From positions 32,001-96,000 of the forward strand of contig JAVJQW010000047.1 of the NCBI GenBank assembly GCA_040218735.1: 64,000 nucleotides of DNA, written 5' to 3'. The number at the start of each line of letters is the position of its first letter. Positions within the stretch are counted from its first letter, which is position 1. This document shows, piece by piece, positions 8,158 to 33,851 of this stretch. This DNA is from Deltaproteobacteria bacterium. Lineage in GTDB: Bacteria > Myxococcota > Kuafuiibacteriia > Kuafuiibacteriales > Kuafuiibacteriaceae. Below the pieces are notes generated by a model that ran no database searches, was not told where the DNA came from, and saw only the letters and a list, made by a program, of their open reading frames with translations. The position numbers and the translations under genes were made by a program.

Positions 8158-8175
8158 GCGAACCGGTGCTGCGGT

Positions 8176-9234: not shown

Positions 9235-9327
9235 CACGTTCAAAGCTCGCTCATTCGGTTGCGATTCGCAAAGGTTGGTCCGACCCACACCGTCGCCCAA
9301 CAGGCGACGGTCACCCACGCGCTACGC

Positions 9328-12494: not shown

Positions 12495-12646
12495 AACCTC
12501 TGACCCGGGAGGATAACCAAACCCGCCCCCGCAAGCGAACGCCCGCGGGCGTCGATTCTCGGCCGACACACCAGGATACGCTTTGACCAGGATGTCGAGT
12601 CTACAAAGTCGGCAGAGGTTCAAGCAGGTGGTAGGTTTCGGACGGC

Positions 12647-14263
12647 ATGCAGCCCGTGTTCGGGAGACAACCGGGGTACGTCGTCTCGTACTGCCCCGTA
12701 GCCTCGGCACACGGGATGCGGGTGCTCGAGGAGGGCGGCAACGCCGTCGACGCGGCCGTCGCGACCGGCCTCGCGCTCGCCGTCACGTATCCCCAGGCCG
12801 GCAACATCGGCGGCGGTGGCTTCATGCTCATCGCGCCCCACAAGGAGCCGGTGAGTTTCCTCGACTACCGCGAGGTCGCACCGAAGAACATCAACCCGCA
12901 GGACTACCTCGTCGATGGACGTCGCGGCGAAGCGATGGTGCTCGGCGCAAAGTCCGCCGCCGTGCCCGGAACGATCGCCGGGTTTGCAAAGGCGCTCGAA
13001 ACCCACGGGACGATGTCGTGGGATCGCATCGTCGGGCAGATCGTCGACCTCGCCGAAAACGGCGTCATCATCACGTCGCGCCAGGCCGCCTATCTCAACG
13101 CATACCGCGAGACGCTCTCGCGCTTCGAATCCACACGTAAGGTCTTCGGCCGATCGATACTTCCGGCGACGCGCTTCCTTCAGCCGGACCTCGCGCAGAC
13201 GTTCCGCCGCCTCGCAGAACACGGACCACGCGACTTCTACCGCGGTCGACTCGCCGCGCTCCTCCTCGACGAGATCCGTCGCGGCGGCGGACCGATGACC
13301 CTGGACGACCTCGTCGAGTTCGAGGCGAAGTGGCGCGTCCCGTTCACGTGTGAGGCGTTCGGGCGCCGCATATGGACGGCGCCCTTCCCTTCCGGCGGCG
13401 GCCTCGTCGTGCACCTGACCCTGCGTATCCTCGACGGCCTCGGCTACGCTTCGCTCCCCCCACGTTCCCTCGAGCGCTACCAACTGTTGATCCGTGCGTT
13501 CCGCGTCGCGTTCTGGATGCGGCAAACCTACGCCGTCGATCCCGACTTCCTCACCGAAGAGCAGCAGCTGGAGATCGAGACCCTCCTCGAGTGTCCGATC
13601 ACCCGCTCGCAGCTCGAAGAGTGGGAGACAAAACTCCGCCAGGACAAACGGCTGCTCGAGAACGAAGCCGCCTACCTTAGGTCGCAGAACAAGAACACGA
13701 CCCACTTCAGCGTGCTCGACTCTGCAGGAAACGCAGTATCGAACACCTACAGCCTCAACACACTGTTTGGTTCGAAGCTGGTGGTGAACGGCGCCGGTTA
13801 CCTGCTCAACAACACGCTGGATGACTTTGGCGTCGGACGTGGGACGCCCAACTGGTACGGCATCCTGGACGGCGATCGAAACATGCTCACGGGGGGGCGC
13901 CGTCCGGTCGGTTCGATGGCGCCGACGATCGTCGAGGGTGACGGTGTACCAGAGCTCGTCATCGGCGGCTCTGGCGGGCCGACCATCCCCACGATGGTGG
14001 TTCAGACGCTTCTGGGCGTGGTCCTCGACGGCCGCTCGGTCGCGGCCGCCTTGGCCGAGCCCCGCGTGCACCACCAACACTCCAAGGCGGAGCTCCGCTT
14101 GGAGAACGCCGTCGCGCAGAGCATCCGGGATACACTTTTTCTCGACGACGACCCGCGCACTTTTGTCTCGCGAATCGGGATCGGCGCGGCGATTCATCGC
14201 GACCAGGACACGGGTCAGGTGCAGGCCGCGCTCGATCCACGCTTCGGTCTACACGGTCAGTGA
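12647..14263 (+). CDS. ggt: Gamma-glutamyltransferase (cytoplasmic, no signal peptide)
   Basis: GGNAVDAAVA, GNIGGGGFM, DYREVAP, catalytic TTHFSVLD, GGSGGPTI. Confidence 0.92.
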   Translation: MQPVFGRQPGYVVSYCPVASAHGMRVLEEGGNAVDAAVATGLALAVTYPQAGNIGGGGFMLIAPHKEPVSFLDYREVAPKNINPQDYLVDGRRGEAMVLGAKSAAVPGTIAGFAKALETHGTMSWDRIVGQIVDLAENGVIITSRQAAYLNAYRETLSRFESTRKVFGRSILPATRFLQPDLAQTFRRLAEHGPRDFYRGRLAALLLDEIRRGGGPMTLDDLVEFEAKWRVPFTCEAFGRRIWTAPFPSGGGLVVHLTLRILDGLGYASLPPRSLERYQLLIRAFRVAFWMRQTYAVDPDFLTEEQQLEIETLLECPITRSQLEEWETKLRQDKRLLENEAAYLRSQNKNTTHFSVLDSAGNAVSNTYSLNTLFGSKLVVNGAGYLLNNTLDDFGVGRGTPNWYGILDGDRNMLTGGRRPVGSMAPTIVEGDGVPELVIGGSGGPTIPTMVVQTLLGVVLDGRSVAAALAEPRVHHQHSKAELRLENAVAQSIRDTLFLDDDPRTFVSRIGIGAAIHRDQDTGQVQAALDPRFGLHGQ

Positions 14264-14396
14264 TCAGCGCGGGTGTAGACCAGCGACTACAGGGTCGGCG
14301 TTCGAAAGTGGATCGGTCACACCCATCGCGGGCGGGCCGAAACTCCGTACATTGCGCCAAATATCAGGCTACATCAAAGTCGCCGCGGCCCCACCG

Positions 14397-15719
14397 ATGT
14401 ATGAACTGATGAGTGCGTCGCTCCCCGTCATGGCCGAACGCCCCTCGGCCGTGGCCAGACTTCGCGCGCGACTGGACCGTGAGCCGGGACACGTCGTCGC
14501 GTCGTTCCGCGCGCTACAGGAGCAACAACGTCAACGACGCGTGCTGTTTCGCGACGAGCTCCTCCCAGCTTCAATCGTTCCGCACTTCGTCGACCGAGAG
14601 GTTCACCAAGAGTGGGTACGACAACTCACCCAGTTGTTCGTGGATCTGGAAGCCATTGGCGCAGACTTCCTCGAATCACCGGACCTGTACGACACCCTCG
14701 GACTCCCCGATGCCGCGCGCGCTCTGATCGAAATCGATCCAGGTTACGACAAACTCGCCATCGTCTCGCGACTCGACATGGTGTGGGACGGCGACCGCTC
14801 CTACGTCTACGAGATCAACGTCGACAGCCCGGCGATGATGACGTTCACGGACTACCTCGAGGACATCATCCGCTCGCTCTTCCCGCTGCAGGGGCTCGAG
14901 GACGTCGACCCGATGCCACATCGCCGCACCACGGTGCTGCACGACGCTCTCATCGAGTGTTACCAACAGTGGGGCGGCAACAAGGCCTCGCCGACGATCG
15001 CGATCGTCGATTGGCGCGGCCAGAAGACCGCCGACGAGCTCGTTGCGACCGCCAATGAGTTTACGAAGCTGGGATCACCTTCGTTCGTTTGTGACCCGCG
15101 GGACCTGAAGATCGTCAACCGCAAGCTGACTTGCAACGGGCGCGAGATCGACATCGTTCAGCGCCGTGTGCTGTTCCCTGAGTTCCTGCAACGTCCGAAC
15201 GAAATCGCTACGCTCGTCGAGGCGTACCGACGCGGGCTCATATGTATGGCGAATCCACTTCGCTCGTACCTGCTCGGCAACAAGTGCCTCCTCACGCTCC
15301 TGAGCGACGAGCGCGGACGTTCTGCGGTTGGACGCCAGATCGTGCTTCCGACGGTCCGCGTCACGCCCGACAACGTCAATCGGTTCCGTCAACGCGAAGA
15401 CTGGGTCCTCAAGGGTGCACTCGGCCATGGCGGCCACGAAGTCCTCCTCGGCGTGGAGCAGTCCGACGAAGCGTGGGCCGAAGCGCTCGATATCGCCCAT
15501 CGCTCGTTGTGGGTCGCGCAGCGCTATCACCGACCGCCGAAGCTGACGGTCCCCATCATGACTTCGGACGGTATCCAGGAGCGCCCGTTGTGGGCGAACT
15601 GGAACCCGTTCTTCTTCGGCGGCCGGTTCGCGGGCGGAATGACGCGCGTGAGCTCGGAAGCCATCGTGAGCATCACCGCGAACGGCGCGTTGTTGCCCAC
15701 GCTCACGACGACCCCATGA
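14397..15719 (+). CDS. Circularly permuted ATP-grasp / glutathionylspermidine synthase-like amide ligase
   Basis: SRLDMV...YEINVDSPA, IAIVDW, LLGNKCLL, WVLKGALGHGGHEV, WVAQRY; start uncertain (14397, 14409 or 14430). Confidence 0.8.
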   Translation: MYELMSASLPVMAERPSAVARLRARLDREPGHVVASFRALQEQQRQRRVLFRDELLPASIVPHFVDREVHQEWVRQLTQLFVDLEAIGADFLESPDLYDTLGLPDAARALIEIDPGYDKLAIVSRLDMVWDGDRSYVYEINVDSPAMMTFTDYLEDIIRSLFPLQGLEDVDPMPHRRTTVLHDALIECYQQWGGNKASPTIAIVDWRGQKTADELVATANEFTKLGSPSFVCDPRDLKIVNRKLTCNGREIDIVQRRVLFPEFLQRPNEIATLVEAYRRGLICMANPLRSYLLGNKCLLTLLSDERGRSAVGRQIVLPTVRVTPDNVNRFRQREDWVLKGALGHGGHEVLLGVEQSDEAWAEALDIAHRSLWVAQRYHRPPKLTVPIMTSDGIQERPLWANWNPFFFGGRFAGGMTRVSSEAIVSITANGALLPTLTTTP

Positions 15720-16852
15720 CCGATAAATCCCCCATCCTGCAGATTCGATATGTCGATCCCGACGAAGGTTGGGAAGGCTACCTCGTCATCGACAGCCTGG
15801 TGAATGGCGTATCGGGTGGCGGTCTTCGCGTCACGAAGACCGTCGACTTCGACGAGGTGCGCGGATTGGCGCGCGCCATGTCGCTGAAGAACCACGTGAT
15901 GGGTTTGCCGCTGGGCGGCGCGAAGTCGGCCGTACGCTACGACCCGGCGGCGCCCGAGCTCCCCGACGTACTCACGAAATTCATGCGGCACATCGGACCG
16001 ATCTGCCAACAGATGTACGGATGGGGCCCGGACATGAACACGCCCCCCGATCTCTGCGACAGCGTCGCGGACCGAGCGGGGATGAAGTCACGTCACATGG
16101 CGCTCGCCGAACGGTCGGAGCACGGGTACGCGGGCGTGGACAACTACAACCGAGCGCTTCGCTTGCAGGTCGGTCCGGTGACGATGACCGAAGCACGCAC
16201 GGCGATCGGCGTCGTCGGCGCCACGGAGTGCGCCGCGAAGCTCCTCGAGCTGGGCGGTCCACTGCGCGTCGCGATTCAGGGGTTCGGATCGGTGGGGAGC
16301 GGCGCGGTCTACTTCCTCGATCAACGCGGTCACCGCATCGTCGGGGTCGCAGACGCGGGCGGCGCATACAAAAAGGCCGACGGCCTGGATTTCGACACGC
16401 TGCTCGCAGCCAAGGGCGACAACCGAGAGATCGACCCGGCGAAGGTCCCCGAAGCACAGCGCGCCGGAGCTCCGGACGCCATCTTCGACGTGGAGTGCGA
16501 CGTGTTGATCCTCGCCGCGCTCTCCGGCGCGCTCACCGAGGAGCGCGCCCGCCGTGTCCGCGCGAAGATGGTGGTCGAGGGCGGAAACCTCGCCGTAACC
16601 GACGCCGGAGCGGCCGTCCTCGCGGAGCGCGGCATCCCGTCCGTGCCCGACTTCATCGTCAATGGTGGCGGCATCGGGATCGTCAGCGGCGTCATCCAGC
16701 TCGGTTGGAAGTGCGACGCGGACTACATCCTCGAGCAGATCGAATCCCGGGTTGCGGCCGCCACGGAGCGAACGGTTCACCACGCCAAGCAGCACGGCGG
16801 CACGCTGCGCGAGGCCGCGTACGCGTTGCTCCCGGAGCGACTGCGCCCCTGA
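15716..16852 (+). CDS. Glu/Leu/Phe/Val dehydrogenase-family protein
   Basis: GGGLR, MSLK...GGAKS, GPDMNT, IQGFGSVG, VEGGN, PDFIVNGGG; ATGA overlap with the upstream gene. Confidence 0.9.
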   Translation: MTDKSPILQIRYVDPDEGWEGYLVIDSLVNGVSGGGLRVTKTVDFDEVRGLARAMSLKNHVMGLPLGGAKSAVRYDPAAPELPDVLTKFMRHIGPICQQMYGWGPDMNTPPDLCDSVADRAGMKSRHMALAERSEHGYAGVDNYNRALRLQVGPVTMTEARTAIGVVGATECAAKLLELGGPLRVAIQGFGSVGSGAVYFLDQRGHRIVGVADAGGAYKKADGLDFDTLLAAKGDNREIDPAKVPEAQRAGAPDAIFDVECDVLILAALSGALTEERARRVRAKMVVEGGNLAVTDAGAAVLAERGIPSVPDFIVNGGGIGIVSGVIQLGWKCDADYILEQIESRVAAATERTVHHAKQHGGTLREAAYALLPERLRP

Positions 16853-16859
16853 GCTCACC

Positions 16860-17600
16860 ATGATGGACATGGTCACGAAGCTGCTGGGGCCCTCGAGCCG
16901 AACCGAGAAGCCGCGAGGGCACGGGATCACGATCCTCCTCGACAAGGGCCTCGGCCCGAATGCCATCGACGACATCGGTACCGTCTGCGGCGCGCACTGT
17001 GACTACGCGAAGATCGCGTGGGGAAGCCTACTCATCTCGGGTGGCTTGGAAGCCAAGATCGCCGCGTACCGACGACACGGAATCGAACCCAAGATCGGTG
17101 GCACCCTCTTCGAGTACGCGTACGCCAACGGCAAGGTCGAGGACCTCCTCGTGCTCGTGCAGGAGTTGAAGATTCACGTCGAGATCTCCGACGGGGTCAT
17201 CAAGCTCCCACGTCAGGAGCGGCTCGCGCTCATCTCCAAGTTCGCCGCGCGGGTGAACGTCTTCTCGGAGCTGGGAGGCAAACTCTCGGCGCACGACCTC
17301 GACTTCGTCGCAGCGGCGAAGGAAGACCTCGCCGCTGGTGCAAAGAAGGTCGTCATCGAAGGCCGTGAAGTGGGTCCGGTCGGCAAACCCATCCGCACGG
17401 ATCTGGTCGACCGCCTCCTCGAAGCGTTGCCCGTCGAGGACATGGTCTTCGAATCACTCGAACGCCCCCAGCAGGTCTTCTTCATCAAACGCGTCGGCGC
17501 AAACGTGAACCTCGGGAACATCCTGCCGAAGGACCTCATGACGGTGGAGTGTTTCCGCCGCGGCCTGAAGGAACACACGTTCCTCGACAAGCCGGTCTGA
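16860..17600 (+). CDS. comA: Phosphosulfolactate synthase
   Basis: KPRGHGITILLDKG, DYAKIAWGS, GGTLFE, VEISDG, IEGRE, NVNLGNI, ECFRRGL. Confidence 0.9.
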   Translation: MMDMVTKLLGPSSRTEKPRGHGITILLDKGLGPNAIDDIGTVCGAHCDYAKIAWGSLLISGGLEAKIAAYRRHGIEPKIGGTLFEYAYANGKVEDLLVLVQELKIHVEISDGVIKLPRQERLALISKFAARVNVFSELGGKLSAHDLDFVAAAKEDLAAGAKKVVIEGREVGPVGKPIRTDLVDRLLEALPVEDMVFESLERPQQVFFIKRVGANVNLGNILPKDLMTVECFRRGLKEHTFLDKPV

Positions 17601-17602
17601 CG

Positions 17603-18289
17603 ATGCACGTCGAGATCGTCCGCCCCCGCGACCTCGACGGTGAAGCCGACGTCGCGGTCGTGATCGACATCTTCCGCGCTACGAGCACCGCGACGACGCT
17701 GCTCGCGGAGCAGACGGACACGATGGCGATCGCAGCGACCCCGGCCGAAGTGCTCGCACACGGTGAAGCCGTCCCGCGCCCCCTGGTGTTCAGCGAGATC
17801 TCACAGCTCGACGTGCCGATGGACCGCGTCGACAACAGCCCCTCGGTGGCCAAGCAGCTGGAGCTCGCGGGCCGTACGCCCGTCCTCGTCACGACCAACG
17901 GCACTCGAACCGTCGACGCCGTCGCAGATCGCGTGAACACGATCCTGCTCGGGTCCTTCCTGAGCCTCTCCGCGCTGGTCCATCACCTTCGCTCGCTCGC
18001 GCCCAGACGGGTATTCGTGGTGCCCGCAGGGAGCTTCTCGCGCAATGCGAGCCACATCGAGGACGACCTCTGCGCCGAAGCCATCCGGACGCTCCTCGCC
18101 GACGGCGAACACGATCCCGAGGAGGTCGTCCGCGCCGTTCGCGCCTCCGAACGCTACGACCGCCGAGTCCGCGGCAACGCCAACTTCGAAGCCGACGCCG
18201 AGATCGCGCTGAGCCACGACATCTACACCGTGGTCCCCGTCGTCCGCCGCGAAAGCGGGTTGTTCTGGGCGACGCCGGCTACGACTTAG
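17603..18289 (+). CDS. comB: 2-phosphosulfolactate phosphatase
   Basis: VIDIFRATST, NSPS, TTNGT, EDDLCA; immediately downstream of comA. Confidence 0.88.
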   Translation: MHVEIVRPRDLDGEADVAVVIDIFRATSTATTLLAEQTDTMAIAATPAEVLAHGEAVPRPLVFSEISQLDVPMDRVDNSPSVAKQLELAGRTPVLVTTNGTRTVDAVADRVNTILLGSFLSLSALVHHLRSLAPRRVFVVPAGSFSRNASHIEDDLCAEAIRTLLADGEHDPEEVVRAVRASERYDRRVRGNANFEADAEIALSHDIYTVVPVVRRESGLFWATPATT

Positions 18290-18656
18290 GTTTCCTGGAG
18301 ACGACCTGCATCCGCCAGCCGTCCGGATCCCGGAAGTTGGCGAGCGTACGGCCCGTGGGCTCGTAGAAGGTCGGCCCCGCCTCCAGCTTCAGTCCGTTGG
18401 CCTCCGCGTGCTCGGCGAAAGCGTCGGCGTCGTCGACCCGGTAGGCGATGTGATTCACACCGACGTTCTCTTCGCCCGCGACCTGGTGCAGCTCGATGAT
18501 GGGCTGGTCGCCGTCGCCGGGGAACTTCAGCTCCGCCGATGCGCCGTGGTGACTCGTCCGGCGAACCAGCTCGAACCCGAGCATCTGGTACCAAGCGATC
18601 TGCTGCTCCAGATCGCGCACGATGATTTCGATGTGATCGATTCCTAGGAATTTCAT
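18279..18656 (-). CDS. VOC/glyoxalase-family protein
   Basis: IDHIEIIVRDL...LGF, NHIAYRVDD, FRDPDGWRMQV. Confidence 0.88.
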   Translation of the reverse strand: MKFLGIDHIEIIVRDLEQQIAWYQMLGFELVRRTSHHGASAELKFPGDGDQPIIELHQVAGEENVGVNHIAYRVDDADAFAEHAEANGLKLEAGPTFYEPTGRTLANFRDPDGWRMQVVSRKPKS

Positions 18657-18675
18657 GAGTTCTCTTCCGTGATCT

Positions 18676-20520
18676 CTATCTGTGCCAGGCGCGGAGCCAG
18701 GAAGCGTATAGGTTCGGCGCTTCCTCGGCGCGCACGTCGTCGCGCTCGAAGAGCGGGCCATCCACGGTCCCGTCGGTGCGATCCACGATCCAACCACCCC
18801 GCGTGACCTGGGCGCCACGACGCCAGTCGACGCGCTTCACGAGTTTCTGCGGCACGGAGCGTACGACCGCGTGCAGCGCGGCGGCGTAGTCGGGCACCAC
18901 GACCTCCACGCCACGGTCAATCAACTCATCGACGAGCTCGTAGCGCGCGACCGCCGGGCCGATGACCACGCGAGAGACATCGTCCGGCACCTGCGCGTCG
19001 GGGTCATCGAGGACGAACGTCCCCGCCACCGCATCCGAAGAGAAGCCGTCGTGGAGGCGCCGCTGGAGCCCGGCCCTCGCAGACGCGAACCCACCCGGTC
19101 CGGGACCGGCCGCCGCGACGAGCGCCGAGACCACGACGTCGCCCCAATCGATCGGCCGAAGCTCGACGCCTTCGCGCCCGGCGATCTCCACTCGTACGCC
19201 GGGTGCGACGAAGACGTGGTCGAACGCGTATCCGCGATCGTCGAAGGTGATCTTCGCGACGCCGTCCGCCGCGACGATCGCATAAGCGGCGCCACCGGAG
19301 TGGAGCCACGTCGGCGTCCTCGCCGGCCACGCATCCTGCGGAACCACGATGACGTGCGGCACCGCGTGGTACTTCGCGACCATCGCCCGCGCCTGACGCG
19401 GCACCGTCGTGGGATCGATGGCAACGTTCGACGACGCCTCCGCGGCAAAGTTGTCGACCACCCGATCGAGCCCCTGCGCAGGCGGACGGTTCTTCACGTT
19501 ACCGAGCGCCTCCTCCACCGCCTCCTCCGGGATGCGCAGTCCTTCGAGACCGCCCATCGGTTCGGCGATGCGCGCGACCTCGGGGATGAGGGTGTCGACG
19601 TGCAGCTCGGCGTCGGCCGAAACCGCGTTGAGCTGCCGGAGAGTTCCGGAGTGCACCCGCGCGAGGCCCGTCTCGACGAACGTGGGATCGAAGCCTCGGC
19701 CGATCCACGGACGAACGATGTCGCGTCCGATCGCGTTCACCGCGCGCCGGTCGATCTGAGGTTCGAGACCAAGGCGCCCCTGCATGAGCGCGAGCAGGCG
19801 CTCGGTCTCGGCGTTGCCGGTGGCCCGCCCGAGGCCCTGCAGCGAGGCGTCGACGAGCGTCGCCCCCTCCTGGATAGCCGCGATGCTGTTCGCTGTCGCG
19901 AGGCCGAGGTTGTTGTGCCCGTGGAAGCCTACGCGCGCATCCGTCTTCGCGACGGCGGCCGCGACGTATCGTTTCACTTCGTCGGGCGTCCAACACCCTG
20001 CGGAGTCGACGAGGTAGACCCACGACGCTCCGGCCTCCGCCGCAGCGCGGCACTTGTCCGCCATCTGCTCGGGGGTTCGCAGGTAGCTCCGCATGAAGTT
20101 CACGCTGACGAGCAACCCACGCTTCGCCGCGTACTCGATCGACTTCATCGTCGCTTCGCGGTCGGGGATGCTCTTCGGCGTGCAGGCCATTCGGATGAAG
20201 TCGAGGCCATTGTCGATCGCCTCCTCGAAGATCTCTCTCAACACTGGCTCTTCGAAGACGTTCGCAGCGACGAGGGATCCGATCTTGGCGTTCGGCGCCG
20301 CGCGGCGTGCCGCGCGCATGTAGTCACCGTCGGTCTCGGCGGCGGGGACGCTCCCCGGCCACTGCTGTCCGCGAATGCCCCAGCCGTGTCCGATCTCGAT
20401 GTACTTGAGACCGGCCCGGTCGAGCAGACCGACGAGCAGCGCGAGGTCGGCCTTGGTGAATTGGAAGTCGACCTCGTAGCTGCCGTCACGAATCGTGGTC
20501 TCGAGTAGCTCCGCCTGCAT
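18676..20520 (-). CDS. DRE-TIM aldolase (4-hydroxy-2-oxovalerate aldolase-like) with long C-terminal extension
   Basis: TTIRDG, EIGHGWG, YLVDSAG, GFHGHNNLGLATAN, GLGRATGN; about 270 extra residues of unknown fold. Confidence 0.75.
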   Translation of the reverse strand: MQAELLETTIRDGSYEVDFQFTKADLALLVGLLDRAGLKYIEIGHGWGIRGQQWPGSVPAAETDGDYMRAARRAAPNAKIGSLVAANVFEEPVLREIFEEAIDNGLDFIRMACTPKSIPDREATMKSIEYAAKRGLLVSVNFMRSYLRTPEQMADKCRAAAEAGASWVYLVDSAGCWTPDEVKRYVAAAVAKTDARVGFHGHNNLGLATANSIAAIQEGATLVDASLQGLGRATGNAETERLLALMQGRLGLEPQIDRRAVNAIGRDIVRPWIGRGFDPTFVETGLARVHSGTLRQLNAVSADAELHVDTLIPEVARIAEPMGGLEGLRIPEEAVEEALGNVKNRPPAQGLDRVVDNFAAEASSNVAIDPTTVPRQARAMVAKYHAVPHVIVVPQDAWPARTPTWLHSGGAAYAIVAADGVAKITFDDRGYAFDHVFVAPGVRVEIAGREGVELRPIDWGDVVVSALVAAAGPGPGGFASARAGLQRRLHDGFSSDAVAGTFVLDDPDAQVPDDVSRVVIGPAVARYELVDELIDRGVEVVVPDYAAALHAVVRSVPQKLVKRVDWRRGAQVTRGGWIVDRTDGTVDGPLFERDDVRAEEAPNLYASWLRAWHR

Positions 20521-20531
20521 GATCAATCTTC

Positions 20532-21722
20532 CTATTGGCCGGCCGCCTCGCGAATCCAGGCGACGACCATCTCATCGGTCAGCAGGCCTTGCTTCGCTTC
20601 GGACTCCGTCTTGATTCGCGCCAGGACGTCGTTGCGCGCCGACGGAGACAGCTCCAGACCGACCTCCTTGGCCGCGAAGTCCACCGAGCTTCCGCCCGAG
20701 TGTTTGCCGAACACCAACTCATGGTGCCGCCCGATCATCGGCGGCGGGTACGGCTGATAACACTCCGGGTTCTTGAGGAGCCCGGAGATGTGAATGCCCG
20801 ACTCGTGGGTGAAACACAGCTTGCCCCCGACGGGTTTGTGCGCCGGCGGCTCGGTCCCCGAAGCGCGATGTACGGCGTTGCACAGGTCATGCAGCTTCGA
20901 GAGATCGATACCGGTGTCGAGCCCGTACTTGACGTGCAGCGCAACCACCAGCTCCTCGAGGCACGCGTTCCCGGTGCGCTCGCCAACGCCGTTGACGGTG
21001 ACCTGCGCCATCTTCGCTCCCGACTCCAGCGCCGCCAGCGTGTTCGCGAGCGCGAGGCCGAGGTCGTTGTGGAAGTGTGTGCCGATCGGAACGTCGAAGA
21101 GCGCGGTGAAGATCTCCACGATCTTCGTCGTCGCGGTGGGCGTGAGTATGCCGACGGTGTCGGCGAATACGAGGTAGTCGACGCCCGCATCGACCCCCGC
21201 CTGGAACAGCTTGATGATTCGACCGAGCGGCGCTCGGGAGCTGTCCTCGAGCCCGAGCGAAACGAGGGCGCCCTGCTCCTTGGCCTTCCGCACGCCCGCT
21301 TGAATTCGCTCGACCGCTTGCTCCTCGGTCCAACGCGTCTTCTCGAAGAGGTGCGTGTCCGAGCAGCCGAGGAACAGCGCGACGAGGTCCACGCCGGACT
21401 CCACCGTCTTCTCGATGTCGGCGTCGAGCATGCGACACAGGCCAGCGAGCTTGATGTCGAGCCCGGCCTTCGCGAGCCGGTTCACGCTGCTGAACTCATG
21501 CGGTGAAGCCGCGGGGAACCCAGCGTTCGTCCACGGGATACCCATCTCGGACATCATCGTCGCGAGCTCGAACTTCTCATCCGAGTTGAAGACGACACCC
21601 GGCGGCTGCTCGCCTTCGCGGAGCGTGTTGTCGTAGATGATCACGTCGCTCGCGATCGGCTTCGAGAACGCACGAGTGAGTACGTTCGCGGAGGAATCGG
21701 ACGGTCGCATGGGGATCTTCAT
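20532..21722 (-). CDS. Homocitrate/2-alkylmalate synthase family (NifV/AksA/FrbC-like, no regulatory domain)
   Basis: DNTLREGEQ, HFHNDLGLA, GVGERTGN, HESGIH; 396 aa, lacks the LeuA allosteric domain. Confidence 0.88.
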   Translation of the reverse strand: MKIPMRPSDSSANVLTRAFSKPIASDVIIYDNTLREGEQPPGVVFNSDEKFELATMMSEMGIPWTNAGFPAASPHEFSSVNRLAKAGLDIKLAGLCRMLDADIEKTVESGVDLVALFLGCSDTHLFEKTRWTEEQAVERIQAGVRKAKEQGALVSLGLEDSSRAPLGRIIKLFQAGVDAGVDYLVFADTVGILTPTATTKIVEIFTALFDVPIGTHFHNDLGLALANTLAALESGAKMAQVTVNGVGERTGNACLEELVVALHVKYGLDTGIDLSKLHDLCNAVHRASGTEPPAHKPVGGKLCFTHESGIHISGLLKNPECYQPYPPPMIGRHHELVFGKHSGGSSVDFAAKEVGLELSPSARNDVLARIKTESEAKQGLLTDEMVVAWIREAAGQ

Positions 21723-22834
21723 CGGCCTGCCTCCAACCGTCCGACGACGGCGTTGGTGATCTCGACGGTCTTTGCGTCGCCACCCATGTCGCGAGGCTTC
21801 ACCTCCTGGAGCGCCCCGAGGAGCGCATCGATCAGGCGCGAGGCCTCCGCCGAGTAGCCGAGGTAACCCAACATCATCGAAGCCGAGAGGATCGCCGCCG
21901 CCGGGTTCGCGATGCCCTGACCCACGATATCCGGCGCGCTGCCGTGACAAGGTTCGAAGTAGACGACCTTCTCGCCGACGCCCGCGCTCGGCACGAGCGG
22001 CATCCCACCCATGACCTCCGACGCAACGTCGGAGAGGATGTCGCCGAACATGTTCATCGTGACGACGACGTCGAAGCTGTAGGGGCACGCGACCATGCGC
22101 CGCGCAGCCTCGTCGACGAACAACTCATCATAGGTCAGGCCCTGCGCTTCGATCTCCGGGATGCACTTGTCCGCGAAGAACCCACCCACCGTCTTGAGCA
22201 CGTTTCGCTTGTGGACGATCGTCACGTGACCGCGGCCGATGCCGAGCGTTTGGCGGTGTTTCGCGAGGCGCGCGGCGTAGCGCGCGATGCGCGTCGCCGC
22301 GCTCGCCGTACAGATGCGGATCGCGTAGACGCCGTCGTCCTCCGGCAGCGGGCGGCCGAGCGCGTCCTTAGAGTCCGGGTAACGCTCGCGGAGCTCCGCA
22401 AGCGAACCCTCGCGGCCCGGGTACATACCTTCCGTGAGCTCGCGAACGATGACGAGATCCGTGCGCCCCTCCCCCGTGATGCTGTCGATCCCGGGCAGAC
22501 TCGCGGACGGGCGGAGGTTCGCGTAGCACTGGCAGTGATAGCGGATGAAGCGCAGGATCTCGCGCGACTTCGCCTGCACGGCGCCGAACAACACCGCGTC
22601 GGATTCGACGATGTCGGTCTTCACTCGTTCGGGGAACGCGTCGCCGATCTCTTGCTCACCACGCTCCCCGTGGAGCGGCTCGCGAACTTCACAGTCCAGG
22701 CCGGTCGCACGGACACACGCGAGCGCGGACGCGGTGACCTCTGGCCCCACGCCGTCGCCGCCGATCACGGTGATGATCGGGCGCGCGGGTCGCTCGTCGA
22801 TCGGAACGATCCATCGCTCGGGTCCGAGTTTCAT
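21719..22834 (-). CDS. Isocitrate/isopropylmalate dehydrogenase-family protein
   Basis: GDGVGPEV, ANLRP, VRELTEGMY, NMFGDILSD, EPCHGSAPDI. Confidence 0.92.
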   Translation of the reverse strand: MKLGPERWIVPIDERPARPIITVIGGDGVGPEVTASALACVRATGLDCEVREPLHGERGEQEIGDAFPERVKTDIVESDAVLFGAVQAKSREILRFIRYHCQCYANLRPSASLPGIDSITGEGRTDLVIVRELTEGMYPGREGSLAELRERYPDSKDALGRPLPEDDGVYAIRICTASAATRIARYAARLAKHRQTLGIGRGHVTIVHKRNVLKTVGGFFADKCIPEIEAQGLTYDELFVDEAARRMVACPYSFDVVVTMNMFGDILSDVASEVMGGMPLVPSAGVGEKVVYFEPCHGSAPDIVGQGIANPAAAILSASMMLGYLGYSAEASRLIDALLGALQEVKPRDMGGDAKTVEITNAVVGRLEAGR

Positions 22835-23481
22835 CGCGCCGCCTCCTCGCGATCCAAGGCCCACGGGCGCGCCTTCTTCGCGTTTGCCTCGTAGTCGGCG
22901 ATCTCGTCTGCGTACTGCAGCGTGAGCGCGACGTCGTCGAGCCCGTTCACCAGGCAGTGCTTTCGGAAGTCATCGATCTCGAAGGTGTGCTTCGCGCCGT
23001 CCGGCGCCGTCACGGTTTGGTTCGGCAGGTCCACGTGCACGGTCGCGCCCGGGGAGGCTTCGAGCTGGGCCCGCAACCCGTCGCAGACCTCCTTCGCGAG
23101 GCGCACGGCGAGCACGCCGTTCTTCGAGCAGTTGTTGTAGAAGATGTCGCCGAAGCTCGGCGCGATCACACAACGGAAGCCGACGTGGACGGGTGCGCTC
23201 GTCGTGTCCGCGAGCGCCCACACCGCACTCTCGCGCGACGACCCGCACCCGAAGTTCGTGTCCGCCACGATGATGCGCGCTTCACGGAACGGCGCTTGGT
23301 TGAGCGGGAACTCGGGGCGTTCGTTCCCGGCGTCGTCGTAGCGCATGTCGTGGAACGCAAACTTACCGAGCCCGAACGAGCGCGGCTTGCTCAGGAAACG
23401 CGCGGGAATGATGCGGTCGGTGTCGACGTCGCGGAACCCGAGCGGCGCGGCGACGGCCTCGAGGACTTCGAACTTCTCCAT
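22831..23481 (-). CDS. leuD: 3-isopropylmalate dehydratase-like small subunit
   Basis: DVDTDRIIPARF, NFGCGSSRESA, SFGDIFYNN. Confidence 0.93.
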   Translation of the reverse strand: MEKFEVLEAVAAPLGFRDVDTDRIIPARFLSKPRSFGLGKFAFHDMRYDDAGNERPEFPLNQAPFREARIIVADTNFGCGSSRESAVWALADTTSAPVHVGFRCVIAPSFGDIFYNNCSKNGVLAVRLAKEVCDGLRAQLEASPGATVHVDLPNQTVTAPDGAKHTFEIDDFRKHCLVNGLDDVALTLQYADEIADYEANAKKARPWALDREEAAR

Positions 23482-23485
23482 GGTC

Positions 23486-24898
23486 TCAGCTCCTCTCCAT
23501 GCCGCGGACGTCCGTCAGGCGCCCGGTGACCGCGGCGGCCGCGGCCATGATCGGGCTGACGAGATGCGTGCGGCCTCCCTTGCCCTGTCGCCCCTCGAAG
23601 TTGCGGTTCGAGGTGGAAGCGCAACGCTCGCCCGCGGAGATCGTGTCGCCGTTGAGGCCGAGACACATCGAACATCCGGAGTCGCGCCACTCGAAACCCG
23701 CCTCCACGAAGACGCGGTCGATACCCTCCGCTTCCGCGGCGACGCGCACGAGCTCGGAGCCCGGGACGATCATCGCGGGGATCCGAGCCTTCTTGCCCTT
23801 CACGATCGAAGCGGCAGCGCGCAGGTCTTCGATACGACCGTTCGTGCAGCTCCCTATGAAGACGCGGTCGACCTTCACATCGGTCAGCGCCGTCCCCGGC
23901 TCGAGACCCATGTAGTCGAGGGCGCGCTGCATTCGCGCGCGGACGCTCGGGTCGTCGGAGCTCGCCGGGTCCGGCACCTTCTCGTCGATGCCGACCGTGT
24001 CCTCGGGGCTCGTCCCCCAAGTCACCGACGGTGCAAGTGAGCTTGCATCGAGCGCGACCTCGCGATCGAACTTCGCGCCTTCGTCGGAGTAGAGCTTCCG
24101 CCACTGGGCGACCGCTGCGTCCCACTGGTCCGGCCCGGGCGCGTACGGACGACCGCGCACGTACTCGAACGTCTTGTCGTCGGGCGCGACCATCCCCATT
24201 CGGCCGCCGCCTTCGATGGTCATGTTGCAGATCGTCATCCGCGCCTCCATCGAGAGCGATCGGATAGTGCTACCCGCGAACTCGATCGCGTGACCCACGC
24301 CTCCCGTCGCGCCGATGTGGCGAATCAAGGCGAGCACGACATCCTTGCCACCGACACCGAACGGGAGGTCGCCGTCGATCGTGATGCGCATGGTGTTGGG
24401 GCGGCGTTGCCACAGCGTTTGCGTGGCGAGCACGTGCCCGACCTCCGACGCGCCGATACCGAACGCGATGGCCCCGAACGCGCCGTGGGTCGACGTGTGT
24501 GAGTCGCCGCAGACGACGGTCATCCCCGGGAGCGTGAGGCCCTGCTCGGGTCCGACCACGTGGACGATGCCCTGGTCGGGGTCGTTCATCCCGAACAAAC
24601 GAATGCCGTGCGCCTTGGAGTTCTCGTGGAGCGCCTCCACCTTCTTGCGGCGGTCGACGTCCGTGATCGTCGAGAGGCCGGCCGCGCGACCCGTGGTGGG
24701 TACGAAGTGGTCCGCGCAGGAGAACGTCTGCTTCGGACGCGCCACCGGACGGTGTGCGACCGCGAGATCCTCGAAGGCGTGGGAGGAACCTTCGTGCAGG
24801 AGGTGGCAGTCGATGTAGAGCAGCGACGCTCCGTCGTCACGGGTCGTGATGACGTGGGCGTTCCACAGCTTCTCGAAGAGTGTCTTCGGTGTCGTCAT
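23486..24898 (-). CDS. leuC: 3-isopropylmalate dehydratase-like large subunit
   Basis: [42 protein letters not shown]. Confidence 0.95.
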
Positions 24899-24900
24899 GT

Positions 24901-26211
24901 TCAGTTCGCCTCCAGCTCGTGCAGCGTGGACTCGATGGCGTCGAGGCCCTCGTCCAGCTCGTCCGTCGTGATGCAGAGCGGCGGCACCACGAAGAGATTC
25001 GACCAGCGCATCAGCGCGTAGACCCCGCGCTTCTTCAGTCCGCCGACGACCGACTTGGCGGCGGCGCTCAGCGGAGCGCCGACCGGTGACAACGGTGCGT
25101 CGGCCTCGGGATCCTTCAACTCGATCGCGGCGAAGAGCCCCCTGCGGCGTAGCTCGCGGATCGAAGGATGATCGCGTTTCATCGCGTCGACGCGAGCCTC
25201 GAGGTGGTCGCCGACCCTCGCTGCGTTATCCGCGAGCCGTTCGTCGACGATGACTTCCACGTTTGCCTTGGCCACGCCGAGGCAGTACGCGTGCGCGTTG
25301 TAGGTGAGGCCACCCCAGTAGACGTGATCGTCGAAGTGGCGCGCGATGCGTTCGTGAATCGCGACCCCGCCGAGCGGTACGTAGGAGCTCGTGAGGCCCT
25401 TCGCCATCGTGACGAGGTCGGGGACGAAACCTTCGTGCTCGAACGCGAACATCTTCCCGGTGCGCCCGAAGCCGGTCATGACTTCGTCGCAGATCATCAG
25501 GATGCCGTGGCGCTCCAACAGCGCCTTGACCTTCGCAAGGTAGCCGGTCGGCGGCGGAAGTATCCCGTTGGAGCCGGGCACGACCTCGACGATCATCGCG
25601 GCGAAGGTGTTCGGGCCCGCGTTCTCGATCGTGGTCTCCAGCGCGGAGACCGCGCGGTCCACGTAGTCATCGGGTGTACCGCCCGACTCGAAAGAGAGTG
25701 ACCAAGGATCGTCGACGTGCACGACACCGGGCAGCGGCGGTACCCGTTCCCTTCGACTGTCGCCGCTGATCGCGAGCATCCGATGCGTCGCACCGTGGTA
25801 GCTGCGATGACGCGCGAGGATCTTCTGGCGCCCCGTGAACTGGTGCGCCATGCGAATCGCGTTTTCGTTGGCGTCGGCACCCGCGAGCGTGAAGAAGAAG
25901 GTGCCCAGCTCCTCGGGGAGGAGAGTGGCGAGCAGCTCCGAGAGCTCCGCGCGTTGCCGAGTCACCGCGCTCGGCGCGCAATAGACGAGGTCGTTGGTCG
26001 CGGCCCGCATCGCCGCGAGCACGCGCGGGTGTGCGTGCCCGATGTGGACACTCATGAGTTGGCTGTTGAGATCGAGGTACCGCTTTCCGTCTGCGGTCGT
26101 GAAATGCACGCCCTCCGCCCGCTCGATCACCATCGGGTCCAGCGCGCCGCGCGCCGACCAGGAGAACAGCGTTCGCTGCTTGCAGACGTCGCGTATGGCT
26201 TCGGGCGTCAT
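24901..26211 (-). CDS. Class III PLP aminotransferase (omega-amino acid/taurine:pyruvate type)
   Basis: [28 protein letters not shown]; YLDLNSQL instead of the BioA-type SSWW. Confidence 0.88.
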
Positions 26212-26939
26212 TCACCCTCCGGCGTGATGCGGCCCTCGACGTACCCACGAACCCATCCGGCCATCGTGCGTACGGCTTCGGTCTTCGACGCCAGGACGTG
26301 CCACCGATCGACGGGCGCGTTGGTGTCCATGCGGCGCCCGACGACCATCCGCTCCACGCCGCAGAACCGCTGCACCGTGGCGGCGTTCGTGCCGGTGGTG
26401 GGATCCGCGTCCTCCACGACGCTCATGCAGACGCCGAGCGTCCGAACGCCTTCGAGCTTCGCGGCGGCGAGCGCCATGATGGCGAGCGTCGCGCCCTGGG
26501 CGTGATCGCGCCCGAGCAACAAGAGCGGCGCGTTCAGGCTCGTCGCGATGGCGAGGTTGGAGTGCTGCCAGGTCAGCGGCGTCGTCACGCCGCCGGCGCC
26601 CTCGACGAGGACGACGTCGGCTTCGTCGGCGGCGCGTTCCATGTCGCCGATCATCTGTGACCAGTCGATCTCGATGCCCTCGACTTGTGCGGCCATCGCA
26701 GGGGAGAGGGACGAACGGAGACGGACGAGCGCTCGCGGCGGCCAGGTTTGCCCCGTCGCAGCGGCGATGAGCTCACCATCCTCTTGGCCCTCGGGGGAAC
26801 GGTCGCACCATCCCTCCACCGCTTTGATCGCGATGACCTTCAGGCCGTCATCGATGAGCGCGCGCGCCAGCGCTCGGATGAGCAACGTCTTTCCGACGTT
26901 CATCCCGGTGCCGCCGATGAAGACGTGTTTCTTGCCCAT
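26208..26939 (-). CDS. bioD: Dethiobiotin synthetase-like ATP-dependent enzyme
   Basis: GTGMNVGKT P-loop, K-A-V-E-G, VLVEGAGGVTTPL. Confidence 0.75.
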   Translation of the reverse strand: MGKKHVFIGGTGMNVGKTLLIRALARALIDDGLKVIAIKAVEGWCDRSPEGQEDGELIAAATGQTWPPRALVRLRSSLSPAMAAQVEGIEIDWSQMIGDMERAADEADVVLVEGAGGVTTPLTWQHSNLAIATSLNAPLLLLGRDHAQGATLAIMALAAAKLEGVRTLGVCMSVVEDADPTTGTNAATVQRFCGVERMVVGRRMDTNAPVDRWHVLASKTEAVRTMAGWVRGYVEGRITPEGE

Positions 26940-26944
26940 GACGC

Positions 26945-27529
26945 TCAGCCCTCCTCGGGGGCGTCGGCGAGCGCCTGCCGAACGTCTGCGCACGACTTGA
27001 AGAGGTGCGGCATCGCCTCGTCAGGGTTGTAGTCGCTGATGATCGGGTGGGTTCGAAGTGTTCCGAATACCGGTCCGGGTTGGGCGATGAGCTCGGGGAA
27101 GCGACCGGCGAACGTGTCGAGATCGTCGAAGTCCTCGGCGACCGAAAAACCGCAGCCCTTGGCGATGGTGGAGAAGGACAAGCCGCCCCGGTTGGGGATG
27201 GGTTGTCCGCCCGTGCCCGCGTAGACGCCGTTCTCGAGTACGAACACGTAGAGGTTCTGCACGCCGCTCCCGACGATCGTCACGAGGCTGCCGAGGTTCA
27301 TCAGGAGGCTGCCGTCCCCATCGAAAACGATGACCTTGCGATCGGGGCGCCCGAGCGCGATGCCGAGTCCGAGGGAGGTGCCCTTGCCCATCGCGCCGCG
27401 GAAGAGGATGTCGAGCTCGGGCCGCTGGCTCACATCGAACCAGGGTTGGCGTGCGGTCTGGCAGGGGATGACGACGGCGTCGCCGCGGTAGCGCTCGACG
27501 ACCTCGAAGGCCGCGCTGACTTCCATCAT
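26945..27529 (-). CDS. comE: Sulfopyruvate/phosphonopyruvate decarboxylase beta subunit (ThDP-binding)
   Basis: GAMG, DGDGSLLMNLGSL, NGVYAGTGGQP. Confidence 0.82.
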   Translation of the reverse strand: MMEVSAAFEVVERYRGDAVVIPCQTARQPWFDVSQRPELDILFRGAMGKGTSLGLGIALGRPDRKVIVFDGDGSLLMNLGSLVTIVGSGVQNLYVFVLENGVYAGTGGQPIPNRGGLSFSTIAKGCGFSVAEDFDDLDTFAGRFPELIAQPGPVFGTLRTHPIISDYNPDEAMPHLFKSCADVRQALADAPEEG

Positions 27530-28062
27530 GACGAGGCTCCTGATGCCTTCGGGACGCTGGCGTCGTCCGGGAGCAGCAGCGCGACGGGGCGCCCGGTCTC
27601 CTCGGCGATCCCGTACGCCTCGGGGATCCGGTCGAGGTCCTCGTCGGTGACCAAGGGTATGGAGGTCGCGCGCCAGGCGTCGAGGATCGGCTGCGTGTAG
27701 ATACCCGCGGAATCTCGCGCTTGTCCGTCGAGAACCCATCCGCGGTATCCGATCATCATCACCAGGGGCAGACGTGCGTAATAAGTGAACCCTCGGATCG
27801 AGTCGCCTGACTCGAACATGCCGGTGTTCTGGATCATGACCATCGGCTTCTTTCCGCCGATGATGAGTCCGGTGGCGATCGCCATTGTCTCACCTTCGCG
27901 ACAGACGGGGACGAGCGTGAGCTCGGGCGCGGCGGTGAGTAGGTTGTGAATCGTGTCACGCTCGGTGCCGGGGAGATACGGAATGTGCGTCACGCCGGCT
28001 TCGACGATCTTGCGAACGACCTTCTCCGGCGTCACGTGAAATGCATGTGTTTTCGATACCAT
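27526..28062 (-). CDS. comD: Sulfopyruvate/phosphonopyruvate decarboxylase alpha subunit
   Basis: VPVCREGE, MIQNTG, IGYRG; overlaps the beta subunit gene. Confidence 0.82.
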   Translation of the reverse strand: MVSKTHAFHVTPEKVVRKIVEAGVTHIPYLPGTERDTIHNLLTAAPELTLVPVCREGETMAIATGLIIGGKKPMVMIQNTGMFESGDSIRGFTYYARLPLVMMIGYRGWVLDGQARDSAGIYTQPILDAWRATSIPLVTDEDLDRIPEAYGIAEETGRPVALLLPDDASVPKASGASS

Positions 28063-28111
28063 GGACGAACCGAGCGCATGAGGCCACGCGCCTATGGAGC
28101 GGTCAATGGAG

Positions 28112-29035: not shown

Positions 29036-29050
29036 ATCCAACTTGGGGCA

Positions 29051-29093
29051 GACAAAACGCTCCGAGGTACCTCGTGCGGAAGTACCTCGGAGC
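29051..29093 (-). terminator. Intrinsic terminator-like hairpin
   Basis: Perfect 12-bp inverted repeat gctccgaggtac (29059-29070) / gtacctcggagc (29082-29093), followed on the minus strand by GTTTTG. Confidence 0.6.
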
Positions 29094-29113
29094 ATGGGTT
29101 CAATTCGCGAGGC

Positions 29114-30043: not shown

Positions 30044-30447
30044 AGCGTGTGTAGTGTCCCGTTCTCGACTTTCGGAGCTCGATGACTCCGGTGATCTGAG
30101 CGTGTGATGCGCCTTACACTCGTCATATACCAACACCTGCCAAAGTCAAATTGGGGTCCTGGGATCGCGTGCCCGTACATCGGCGCACAACGAGCGACGC
30201 ACACCACGCATCGCAATACGTGTTGCACTCATGTCGGCAGAGTTTCGGACGCGTTGAAGTCGACGTGTCCGCGTCGCGAATACGGTGATCGGCCAAATCT
30301 GAGAATGCGCACTTCGTGCGACCGCAAGAACACGCTCGAAGTCTCCACCGAACGGTGACTCGAAACGATGCGTTTCGCTCGTTCAGCGTGTAAGAACGAC
30401 GTACACCGCCAAACACGCTCACCCACAGCGACCGTCGACTGTGGATT

Positions 30448-33744: not shown

Positions 33745-33851
33745 GCGTGCGTCATGCTGACACAAGGCCGGGACCATGGAAACGAACGCACCGACTCGTG
33801 GCCTTCGACGACTTGGCCGTGAACGGGGAGCGCTGCTAGCGTGGATACGTC

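Follow-up and report, generated by a model that had tools for sequence, protein, structure and literature searches.

What does a bacterium make with coenzyme-M-type genes, a set of 2-oxoacid elongation genes and a gene for a glutathione-synthetase-like ligase placed side by side? The question is raised by positions 12,647 to 28,062 of a 64,000-nucleotide stretch of DNA (the window; positions 32,001 to 96,000 of contig JAVJQW010000047.1, assembly GCA_040218735.1, from a member of the Myxococcota family Kuafuiibacteriaceae), in which fifteen genes form two tightly packed convergent operons. The answer that we favour, at a probability of about 0.5, is a modular biosynthetic locus in which sulfopyruvate would be elongated on the way to homocysteate, with a branch to taurine or homotaurine, and the sulfonate unit ligated into a small gamma-glutamyl-type product for export. 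A sulfonate natural-product cluster had been proposed in a first-pass annotation made from the sequence without database searches. That the locus is not one for leucine, biotin, phosphonate or standard coenzyme M held up, but it is modular and not one fixed cluster. In joining known kinds of chemistry (sulfonate synthesis by ComA and ComB, 2-oxoacid elongation and glutathione-type ligation), it offers a well-founded, testable lead and not a demonstrated pathway.

The window lies in a genome of 11.6 Mb (70 contigs, 96.5% complete) and has a G+C content of about 67%. Homologues of its proteins carry the source labels Kofleriaceae or Myxococcales. Genes were mapped by Pfam and NCBIfam scans, a third-position GC plot and inspection of start codons, and all fifteen named in the first-pass annotation kept their coordinates, order and orientation. 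One reading frame was adjusted: for the amino-acid dehydrogenase of the plus-strand operon, third-position GC and Pfam identified the open reading frame (ORF) 15242–16852 (start 15716), the longest listed ORF, 15769–16863, being in the wrong frame. As had been described, neighbours within each operon share 4 bases or stand 2–19 bases apart, save for 88–133 bases 3' of ggt. The operons meet at 18279/18289, their stop codons converging with an 11-base overlap. A single 68,339-base contig from a sponge-labelled metagenome run of a different study covers positions 11500–30500 with 53 differences and no gaps (about 99.7% identity); the operon junction is therefore real and no assembly artefact. Near-identical DNA of the same interval occurs in runs labelled as sponge, aquaculture, biofloc and biofilm metagenomes, suggesting that the carrier is probably a marine or saline-water organism. 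No Rfam family reached gathering score within 8000–34000. In what follows, G000 is the genome holding the window, and other G and L labels denote sampled genomes and loci.

Predicted chain-elongation enzymes of the minus-strand operon

The middle of the minus-strand operon encodes a synthase, a two-subunit isomerase and a dehydrogenase, as expected for 2-oxoacid elongation. The synthase, a homocitrate/isopropylmalate-synthase-like acyl-CoA:2-oxoacid condensing enzyme (20532–21722; PF00682, PF22617), is under the cut-off in all NCBIfam models, nifV, LysS and LEU1_arch included, and finds its best PDB match in Sulfolobus homocitrate synthase (6ktq, 244 bits). At the site of a His in the Sulfolobus enzyme (AHSR) it carries a Leu (GLCR), as isopropylmalate synthases do; this His is presumably significant. 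The isomerase is encoded by a leuD-type gene for the small subunit (22831–23481; TIGR00171 211 bits, cut-off 116) and a leuC-type gene for the large subunit (23486–24898; TIGR00170 690 bits, cut-off 560); these leucine models pass, whereas the HacA and HacB models are far under cut-off. The third enzyme is a beta-decarboxylating dehydrogenase of the family of isopropylmalate dehydrogenase (IPMDH) and homoisocitrate dehydrogenase (HICDH) (21719–22834; PF00180), with the Thermus thermophilus HICDH structures 1x0l and 3asj as best PDB matches. By these comparisons the trio is a mosaic of a homocitrate-synthase-like enzyme with an isopropylmalate-synthase-like residue, a LeuCD-type isomerase and an HICDH-like dehydrogenase.

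Alignment of the dehydrogenase segment 'lRfiRy' with 'iRylRr' showed that Arg85 and Arg88 (3asj numbering) are kept; in Sulfolobus IPMDH (4y1p), Val stands in place of the first Arg. The HICDH-type Arg is also kept in the orthologues of G018, G006 and G212. Arg85 presumably recognises the distal acid group of homoisocitrate, and its presence argues for a substrate with an anionic side chain in preference to isopropyl.

Could these be leucine genes? The equivalog cut-off for leuC is exceeded by the cluster copy alone. Neither leuA nor leuB reached its cut-off in any part of the genome, the other IPMDH-like and LeuA-like genes resembling isocitrate dehydrogenase and weak synthase relatives, respectively. 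The ilvC model, which scored above cut-off in 14/14 known reference genomes, gave a best score of 22.7 bits in this genome (cut-off 226), so the organism cannot make 2-oxoisovalerate. By the first-pass annotation, the proposal would fall if the leu-like genes were the only leucine pathway of the genome and acted on ketoisovalerate, and a housekeeping leu operon was to be sought; with no ilvC, leuA or leuB above cut-off, the genome has no leucine pathway, and this objection falls away. LeuC is above cut-off in 11/20 genomes of the taxonomic family, and G006 has two copies, one near its comA cassette and the second beside a LeuA-like gene on another contig. A maximum-likelihood tree of 12 LeuC proteins of the family (3 cluster-linked, 9 others) placed the cluster-linked proteins of G000, G006 (contig C3) and G018 in one group with support of 100/100, on a long branch. 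Together these data support the view that the trio is a diverged paralogue set and does not serve leucine synthesis.

The trio is also linked to comA. Among 401 sampled genomes of the phylum, comA was found in 7, and dehydrogenase orthologues (E<=1e-60) in 4 (G000, G006, G018 and G212), all four of them comA-bearing. In G006 the trio lies 12–23 kb from the cassette that holds comA, on the same contig. In G212, which belongs to another family, the cassette is on one contig, and the dehydrogenase, an archaeal-type isomerase, the synthase and an ELFV (Glu/Leu/Phe/Val) amino-acid dehydrogenase are on another, flanked by MFS transporter, MacB/FtsX and OEP efflux genes; the trio there adjoins the ELFV dehydrogenase, whose counterpart in the window adjoins comA. 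G018, of another genus, carries both operons, so that the co-occurrence elsewhere on which the first-pass annotation depended was found; its ten-gene operon and two upstream envelope genes are syntenic with the window, with the bioD-like/aminotransferase pair shifted. The same-genus genome G001 (75% complete) yielded no comA, comE or dehydrogenase orthologue. The earlier proposal that the trio elongates sulfopyruvate has thus gained the diverged paralogues, the anion-type Arg and the link to comA in 4/4 genomes, while sulfopyruvate as the substrate is what we infer.

Some gene copies of the relatives look damaged or mis-assembled: the G212 synthase (L088 11475–16351) is split over three ORFs, one TGA lies within the search match to the G212 dehydrogenase, and the G006 ggt (L020 8766–10317) matches in two pieces.

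The comA cassette and the genes that accompany it

Four genes of the plus-strand operon, comA, comB, ggt and the ligase gene, make up a cassette. By Pfam score, ComA (16860–17600; phosphosulfolactate synthase family, PF02679, 201 bits, above cut-off) and ComB (17603–18289; 2-phosphosulfolactate phosphatase family, PF04029, 104 bits) are clear members of their families. On the equivalog models ComA scores 179 bits (TIGR03849, cut-off 280) and ComB is below every NCBIfam cut-off; comA is present as a single copy in the genome. The gamma-glutamyltransferase gene ggt (12647–14263; PF01019 E 2.8e-125; TIGR00066 372 bits, cut-off 357.85) encodes a protein that keeps the TTHFS motif with the catalytic Thr and lacks an N-terminal signal peptide, as read from the sequence, which suggests that the enzyme is probably cytoplasmic.

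The ligase (14397–15719; start uncertain, TTG 14352 or ATG 14397) is an ATP-grasp enzyme of the GSP_synth, circularly permuted type (PF03738). Its sequence gave no meaningful match among PDB sequences. The AlphaFold2 model (mean confidence, pLDDT, 93) was searched with Foldseek, and the best matches were the human, yeast and soybean glutathione and homoglutathione synthetases (8fbz, 1m0w, 2hgs; TMq 0.71–0.73, E 1e-18), with GspS, YjfC and YgiC ranking after them. Identity across the structural alignments was 13–18% overall and 14–15% to the glutathione and homoglutathione synthetases. The model therefore predicts a glutathione-synthetase fold for the ligase. A canonical gshB is also encoded in the genome. 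The claim that the amide ligase builds a small peptide is strengthened by this fold; the product itself is deduced.

More than 120 homologues of the ligase are present in public protein sets. When an alignment of 30 such proteins was run against JGI metagenome contigs, 25 loci were recovered, and comA and/or comB adjoin the ligase gene in 12 of these, six of which also carry ggt; the 13 loci without comA or comB are contigs of 1.5–9.8 kb. The four-gene cassette is present in 7/25 metagenome loci and in five genomes. Its neighbours in the metagenomes vary, and include class-III aminotransferase, ELFV dehydrogenase, OPT transporter, OEP efflux and mechanosensitive-channel genes. In the marine locus L049, mechanosensitive-channel genes (4914–5930 and 14534–15448) flank the cassette and a RimK-type ligase gene lies upstream; the channels hint at a solute role in that organism. 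A molybdoenzyme gene beside the G342 cassette was considered as a link to sulfite; it encodes MsrP (402 bits) and so is no evidence for such a link.

Between the ligase gene and comA lies the ELFV amino-acid dehydrogenase (15716–16852; PF00208, PF02812), which is nearest to glutamate dehydrogenases (best PDB match 1v9l, E 5e-34). The three ELFV homologues disagree at the motif that presumably holds the side-chain-binding Lys of glutamate dehydrogenase, so no firm substrate inference can be drawn.

The remaining genes of the minus-strand operon, namely comD, comE, the bioD-like gene and those for the aminotransferase, the aldolase and the VOC protein, accompany the trio in G000 and G018 only. 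ComD-like (27526–28062; TIGR03845 67 bits, cut-off 148) and ComE-like (26945–27529; TIGR03846 92 bits, cut-off 221.5; TIGR03297 92 bits) proteins are predicted to form the alpha and beta subunits of a split thiamine-diphosphate (TPP) 2-oxoacid decarboxylase. The sulfopyruvate and phosphonopyruvate decarboxylase models score equally and far under both cut-offs; sulfopyruvate, which the first-pass annotation named for ComDE, is a candidate substrate. Since no match to PEP (phosphoenolpyruvate) mutase (TIGR02320) was obtained in the genome, a phosphonate role of the decarboxylase is unlikely, and a phosphonate cluster was rejected on the same ground. The ComD orthologue of G018 is 59% identical. 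A ComE search of the 401 genomes returned 14 matches at E<=1e-10, and identity exceeded 50% only in G018 (51%). In G006, the stretch between an outer-membrane gene and the synthase gene (L076 2341–5178) encodes a TPP enzyme resembling oxalyl-CoA decarboxylase/2-hydroxyacyl-CoA lyase, along with a CoA-transferase of family III; this pair may be a non-orthologous replacement of comD and comE and could, in principle, shorten sulfolactyl-CoA to sulfoacetaldehyde.

Next to the decarboxylase genes are those for a class-III (omega) aminotransferase (24901–26211, minus strand; PF00202) and a dethiobiotin-synthetase-like ATP-dependent enzyme (26208–26939, minus strand; PF13500), an adjacency that recalls BioA and BioD. 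The BioD-like protein keeps what we take to be the motifs of E. coli BioD (GxxxNVGKT loop, Lys, VEGAGG and SP..AAQ.EG). It is under the bioD cut-off (TIGR00347 74.4 bits against 83.3), however, and the aminotransferase is nearer to taurine:2-oxoglutarate aminotransferase (6jix, E 6.3e-82, 279 bits, full length over residues 2–431; next PDB match 243.6 bits) than to the bioA model (228 bits; cut-off 405). On the separate contig C41 lie housekeeping copies of bioD (133 bits) and bioB (391 bits), and the cluster gene is, on these scores, a paralogue of that bioD. A biotin operon was rejected for these reasons, and a supply of pimelate for biotin was dropped because housekeeping bioD and bioB are found elsewhere in the genome. 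A third bioD-like gene (63 bits) is present in G000 at contig C46:141394–141843. The amination foreseen in the first-pass annotation gains support in that either an amino-acid dehydrogenase or an aminotransferase travels with the system.

The last two minus-strand genes encode an aldolase and a small protein of the VOC/glyoxalase fold (18279–18656; PF00903), the orthologue of which in G018 is 61% identical and syntenic. The aldolase (18676–20526; PF00682; NF006049 214 bits, cut-off 229) consists of a DmpG-like class II domain (residues 1 to about 345) and a C-terminal part of about 270 residues. Its PDB relatives are 4jn6 and 4lrs, and Foldseek aligned 4lrt (TMt 0.86) with the N-terminal half alone. 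The R-D and H-x-H columns, which presumably correspond to DmpG's metal and enolate residues, are invariant in 23 homologues, so the enzyme could condense pyruvate with an aldehyde made by the decarboxylase. For the C-terminal part there was no ESM Atlas hit, no recognised family and no Foldseek match. A search of a collection of genome contigs with the 616-residue protein found one locus (40% identical), in a Myxococcales metagenome-assembled genome without other cluster genes.

Upstream of comD, on the minus strand, lies a gene for an outer-membrane beta-barrel protein (28112–29095; weak PF13505; signal peptide, C-terminal Phe). Its orthologues adjoin comD in G018 (48% identical; L039 16228–17100), lie near the synthase gene in G006 (57%; L076 5220–6173) and stand beside ggt in the metagenome locus L053 (37%; 232–1143), a conserved association which suggests that the barrel travels with the system. 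The first gene of the minus-strand run encodes a lipoprotein-like protein (29114–30136; lipobox VVGC, no Pfam family) with an orthologue at the same position in G018 (35% identical). The conserved barrel and the MacB/FtsX permease and OEP efflux genes beside the G212 trio, together with an OEP gene beside comA in L060, hint that the product of the cluster is probably exported.

Further out, a pentapeptide-repeat protein gene (11262–12710, minus strand; PF00805) diverges from ggt and is of uncertain membership; its orthologue in G006 (L020 11536–12723, 47% identical) lies between comB and the ligase gene. Pentapeptide-repeat proteins can protect DNA gyrase from toxins. The left flank (4907–9318, minus strand), with genes for a protein of about 690 residues without a family, a DUF1501 protein and an OmpA protein, is syntenic with G006 L020 15535–19949, so the cassette occupies the same chromosomal place in two genera. 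On the right, just past the lipoprotein-like gene, 30448–33777 (minus strand) encodes a protein of 1109 residues that combines two-component regulator propeller repeats with a Y_Y_Y domain and, at the C terminus, a SpoIIE-type phosphatase; it could regulate the locus or have no connection with it.

Proposed route and competing explanations

The proposed route would begin with ComA adding sulfite to phosphoenolpyruvate and ComB dephosphorylating the product to (R)-sulfolactate. Oxidation to sulfopyruvate would follow; the dehydrogenase of the trio is a candidate for this step, as its family acts on (2R)-hydroxy acids, and housekeeping malate dehydrogenase is another. The synthase, LeuC/LeuD and the Arg-bearing dehydrogenase would then add one carbon to sulfopyruvate by way of 2-(sulfomethyl)malate and 3-(sulfomethyl)malate to give 2-oxo-4-sulfobutanoate, the sulfonate analogue of the conversion of oxaloacetate through citrate to 2-oxoglutarate. 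Amination by the glutamate-dehydrogenase-like enzyme (replaced by an aspartate-type aminotransferase in one relative) would yield L-homocysteate. In this genome and in G018, the split TPP decarboxylase may form a sulfo-aldehyde, either 3-sulfopropanal or sulfoacetaldehyde, which the taurine-type aminotransferase would convert to homotaurine or taurine, or which the DmpG-like aldolase would alternatively condense with pyruvate. In the last step, the ligase would work with the probably cytoplasmic gamma-glutamyltransferase (both encoded by invariant partners of comA and comB) to incorporate the sulfonate unit into a small peptide or amide of gamma-glutamyl type. The first two steps are assigned from family membership, and the later ones from residues, paralogy and gene association.

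Several observations weigh against this route. Every substrate, the elongated acid and the product are deduced from sequence. ComA, ComB, ComD and ComE are all under their NCBIfam equivalog cut-offs, and ComE finds its best PDB match, at 49.6 bits, in its sole close solved relative, annotated as a putative beta subunit of phosphonopyruvate decarboxylase. A ComC-type gene (Ldh_2, PF02615) was not found in the 96.5% complete genome, so the oxidation of sulfolactate needs another enzyme. LeuC and LeuD still exceed the leucine equivalog cut-offs, the ELFV enzyme has Gly where glutamate dehydrogenase presumably has its side-chain Lys, and the Arg of the trio dehydrogenase, the best matches of which are homoisocitrate dehydrogenases, would suit a carboxylate as well as a sulfonate. 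The association of the modules is also incomplete. All genes of the minus-strand operon were missing from each of the five 21-kb metagenome loci, which extend 10 kb to either side, and G342 has the cassette without a dehydrogenase orthologue, which implies that the cassette works without elongation or decarboxylase genes. The plus- and minus-strand operons of G018 lie on separate contigs. Moreover, the co-occurrence comprises four genomes from two families, three of them from one, in a genome search that scored four candidates per genome.

Much of this would also be expected if two unrelated pathways happened to be neighbours in this genome only, the cassette making a sulfolactate-derived compound and the minus-strand operon elongating a dicarboxylic 2-oxoacid. 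In the latter, 2-oxoglutarate would be extended to 2-oxoadipate and beyond in the style of coenzyme B or alpha-aminoadipate synthesis, and decarboxylation and amination would give an omega-amino acid for bioA/bioD-like processing. The HICDH matches with their presumed distal-carboxylate-binding Arg, the homocitrate synthase match, the weak ComD and ComE scores, the cassettes that stand alone and the separate contigs of G018 all agree with it. The restriction of close dehydrogenase orthologues to comA genomes (4/4), the proximity of trio and cassette in G006, the taurine-type aminotransferase, the LeuCD-type and not homoaconitase-type isomerase and the Leu in place of the presumably significant His of homocitrate synthase speak against it, and we regard the two-pathway explanation as unlikely, though the strongest of the competitors. 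A little less probable again is that the system makes a compatible solute or serves as a sulfite sink, and not a bioactive peptide. ComA and ComB would here trap sulfite as sulfolactate, and taurine, homotaurine, homocysteate or gamma-glutamyl derivatives would be accumulated and released by marine cells; the chemistry is shared with the favoured pathway and the biological role alone differs. The channel genes on both sides of the L049 cassette, the sponge, aquaculture, biofloc and biofilm sources of near-identical DNA, a rhodanese gene near the G212 cassette, an amino-acid permease gene adjoining the cassette in G018 and the OPT transporter gene of L047 fit such a role. On the other hand, at least ten enzymes, with the bioD-like protein, the aldolase and the VOC protein among them, are many for an osmolyte, the efflux and outer-membrane genes suggest secretion, and the patchy occurrence of comA (7/401 genomes) is more typical of specialised metabolism.

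Two further explanations start from the familiar names of the genes. Homologues of 4/5 archaeal com genes are present, and a bacterial variant of coenzyme M (2-mercaptoethanesulfonate) synthesis can be envisaged in which ComA, ComB and ComDE lead to sulfoacetaldehyde and glutathione chemistry delivers the thiol, the ggt product and the glutathione-synthetase-like ligase processing a glutathione adduct in a genome that has gshB. Such a variant seems highly improbable: no ComC-type gene was found in the genome, comDE are absent from most cassette-bearing genomes and loci, coenzyme M synthesis has no step for the elongation trio, and the known bacterial route reportedly uses different enzymes after ComA. 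A standard coenzyme M cluster was rejected, as no match to a ComC-type gene was obtained in the genome. That housekeeping leucine genes lie beside sulfonate genes by chance is practically negligible, even though LeuC and LeuD pass their equivalog cut-offs and the genome has no further leuC above cut-off. Without ilvC there is no 2-oxoisovalerate to elongate, the synthase and dehydrogenase reach no LeuA or LeuB cut-off, Arg replaces the Val of IPMDH in the dehydrogenase, the cluster LeuC proteins form a separate clade, and in G006 it is the second leuC that adjoins a LeuA-like gene. The sulfopyruvate pathway stays the explanation to which we give the greatest weight.

Related systems and biological meaning

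Common to the locus and the archaeal coenzyme M pathway are a phosphosulfolactate synthase, the matching phosphatase and a split TPP decarboxylase from the sulfopyruvate/phosphonopyruvate family. The ggt product and the glutathione-synthetase-fold ligase, whose genes are here the constant companions of comA and comB, have no counterpart in the archaeal pathway, and the present host is a bacterium and not a methanogen, with no ComC-type gene and with four homologues that are sub-cut-off. The elongation systems of leucine, alpha-aminoadipate (homocitrate synthase/homoaconitase/HICDH) and coenzyme B (AksA/AksDE/AksF) synthesis have the same three enzyme families, which here stand in one operon; the downstream genes of those pathways are not present, however, and across the genomes searched the trio goes with comA. 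In the biosynthesis of FR-900098 (FrbC/FrbA/FrbB) and of phosphinothricin (Pms/Pmi), an oxaloacetate analogue with a non-carboxylate acid group is taken through citrate-cycle-like steps. The resemblance to these two, by their general description, is one of proposed logic alone; the acid group here would be a sulfonate introduced by ComA and ComB in a genome with no PEP mutase match, and the isomerase is of LeuCD type and not of aconitase type.

The nearest precedent that we found is misaugamycin, a product of a Streptomyces nonribosomal peptide synthetase, for which a 2-sulfoacetyl supply cassette has been proposed, made up of an acyl carrier protein and an acyl-CoA ligase, together with phosphosulfolactate synthase and glyoxalase (PMC9136965). 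There, as here, a ComA homologue and a glyoxalase/VOC protein appear to have been recruited to specialised metabolism; that cassette comprises these four genes, with no counterpart of comB, ggt, the ATP-grasp ligase, the elongation trio or the decarboxylase (PMC9136965). Compared with glutathione and glutathionylspermidine synthetase and gamma-glutamyltransferase, the ligase model superposes and the ggt product is above the equivalog cut-off. In contrast to those systems, identity of the ligase is low (13–18%), a separate gshB exists in the genome and the ggt product has no signal peptide.

The first-pass annotation knew of no described cluster with this combination, and we found no description of one in the open-access literature searched (subscription journals and supplements lie outside this search). 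No link of phosphosulfolactate synthase with an ATP-grasp ligase and nothing joining sulfolactate and myxobacteria was found there. Phosphosulfolactate with gamma-glutamyl returned unrelated papers only, judged by title and abstract, sulfopyruvate with homocitrate synthase returned only methanogen surveys, and homotaurine biosynthesis with sulfopyruvate only work on catabolism. The names 'oxo-4-sulfobut' and 'sulfomethylmalate' were absent, and 'sulfopropanal' and 'amino-4-sulfobut' occurred, among the matches listed, once each in unrelated papers.

In the sulfur cycle of marine and soil environments, sulfonates are a major currency; to our knowledge few routes that make them have been described, and none is established for homotaurine or homocysteate. 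A bolder possibility, which we put forward tentatively and consider distinctly less probable than the modular pathway, is that the locus holds the first route to C4/C3 sulfonates (L-homocysteate and homotaurine) and that the cassette then builds a new glutathione-like sulfonated peptide. Candidates for this peptide are gamma-Glu-(homo)cysteate-X and gamma-Glu-Cys-(homo)taurine, and its role could be that of an antimetabolite released from the cell or of a glutathione analogue inert to redox chemistry; the comA/comB/ggt/ligase cassette would, as part of the same possibility, be widespread in marine and soil Myxococcota. If the favoured pathway is true, sulfonate would be the third acid group, after carboxylate and phosphonate, to enter citrate-cycle-like elongation. 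Furthermore, a function would be gained for the conserved four-gene cassette that pairs comA and comB with ggt and the ligase gene and is undescribed in the literature searched, and enzymes of the leucine pathway would have been kept and re-tooled in a genome that lost the synthesis of branched-chain amino acids.

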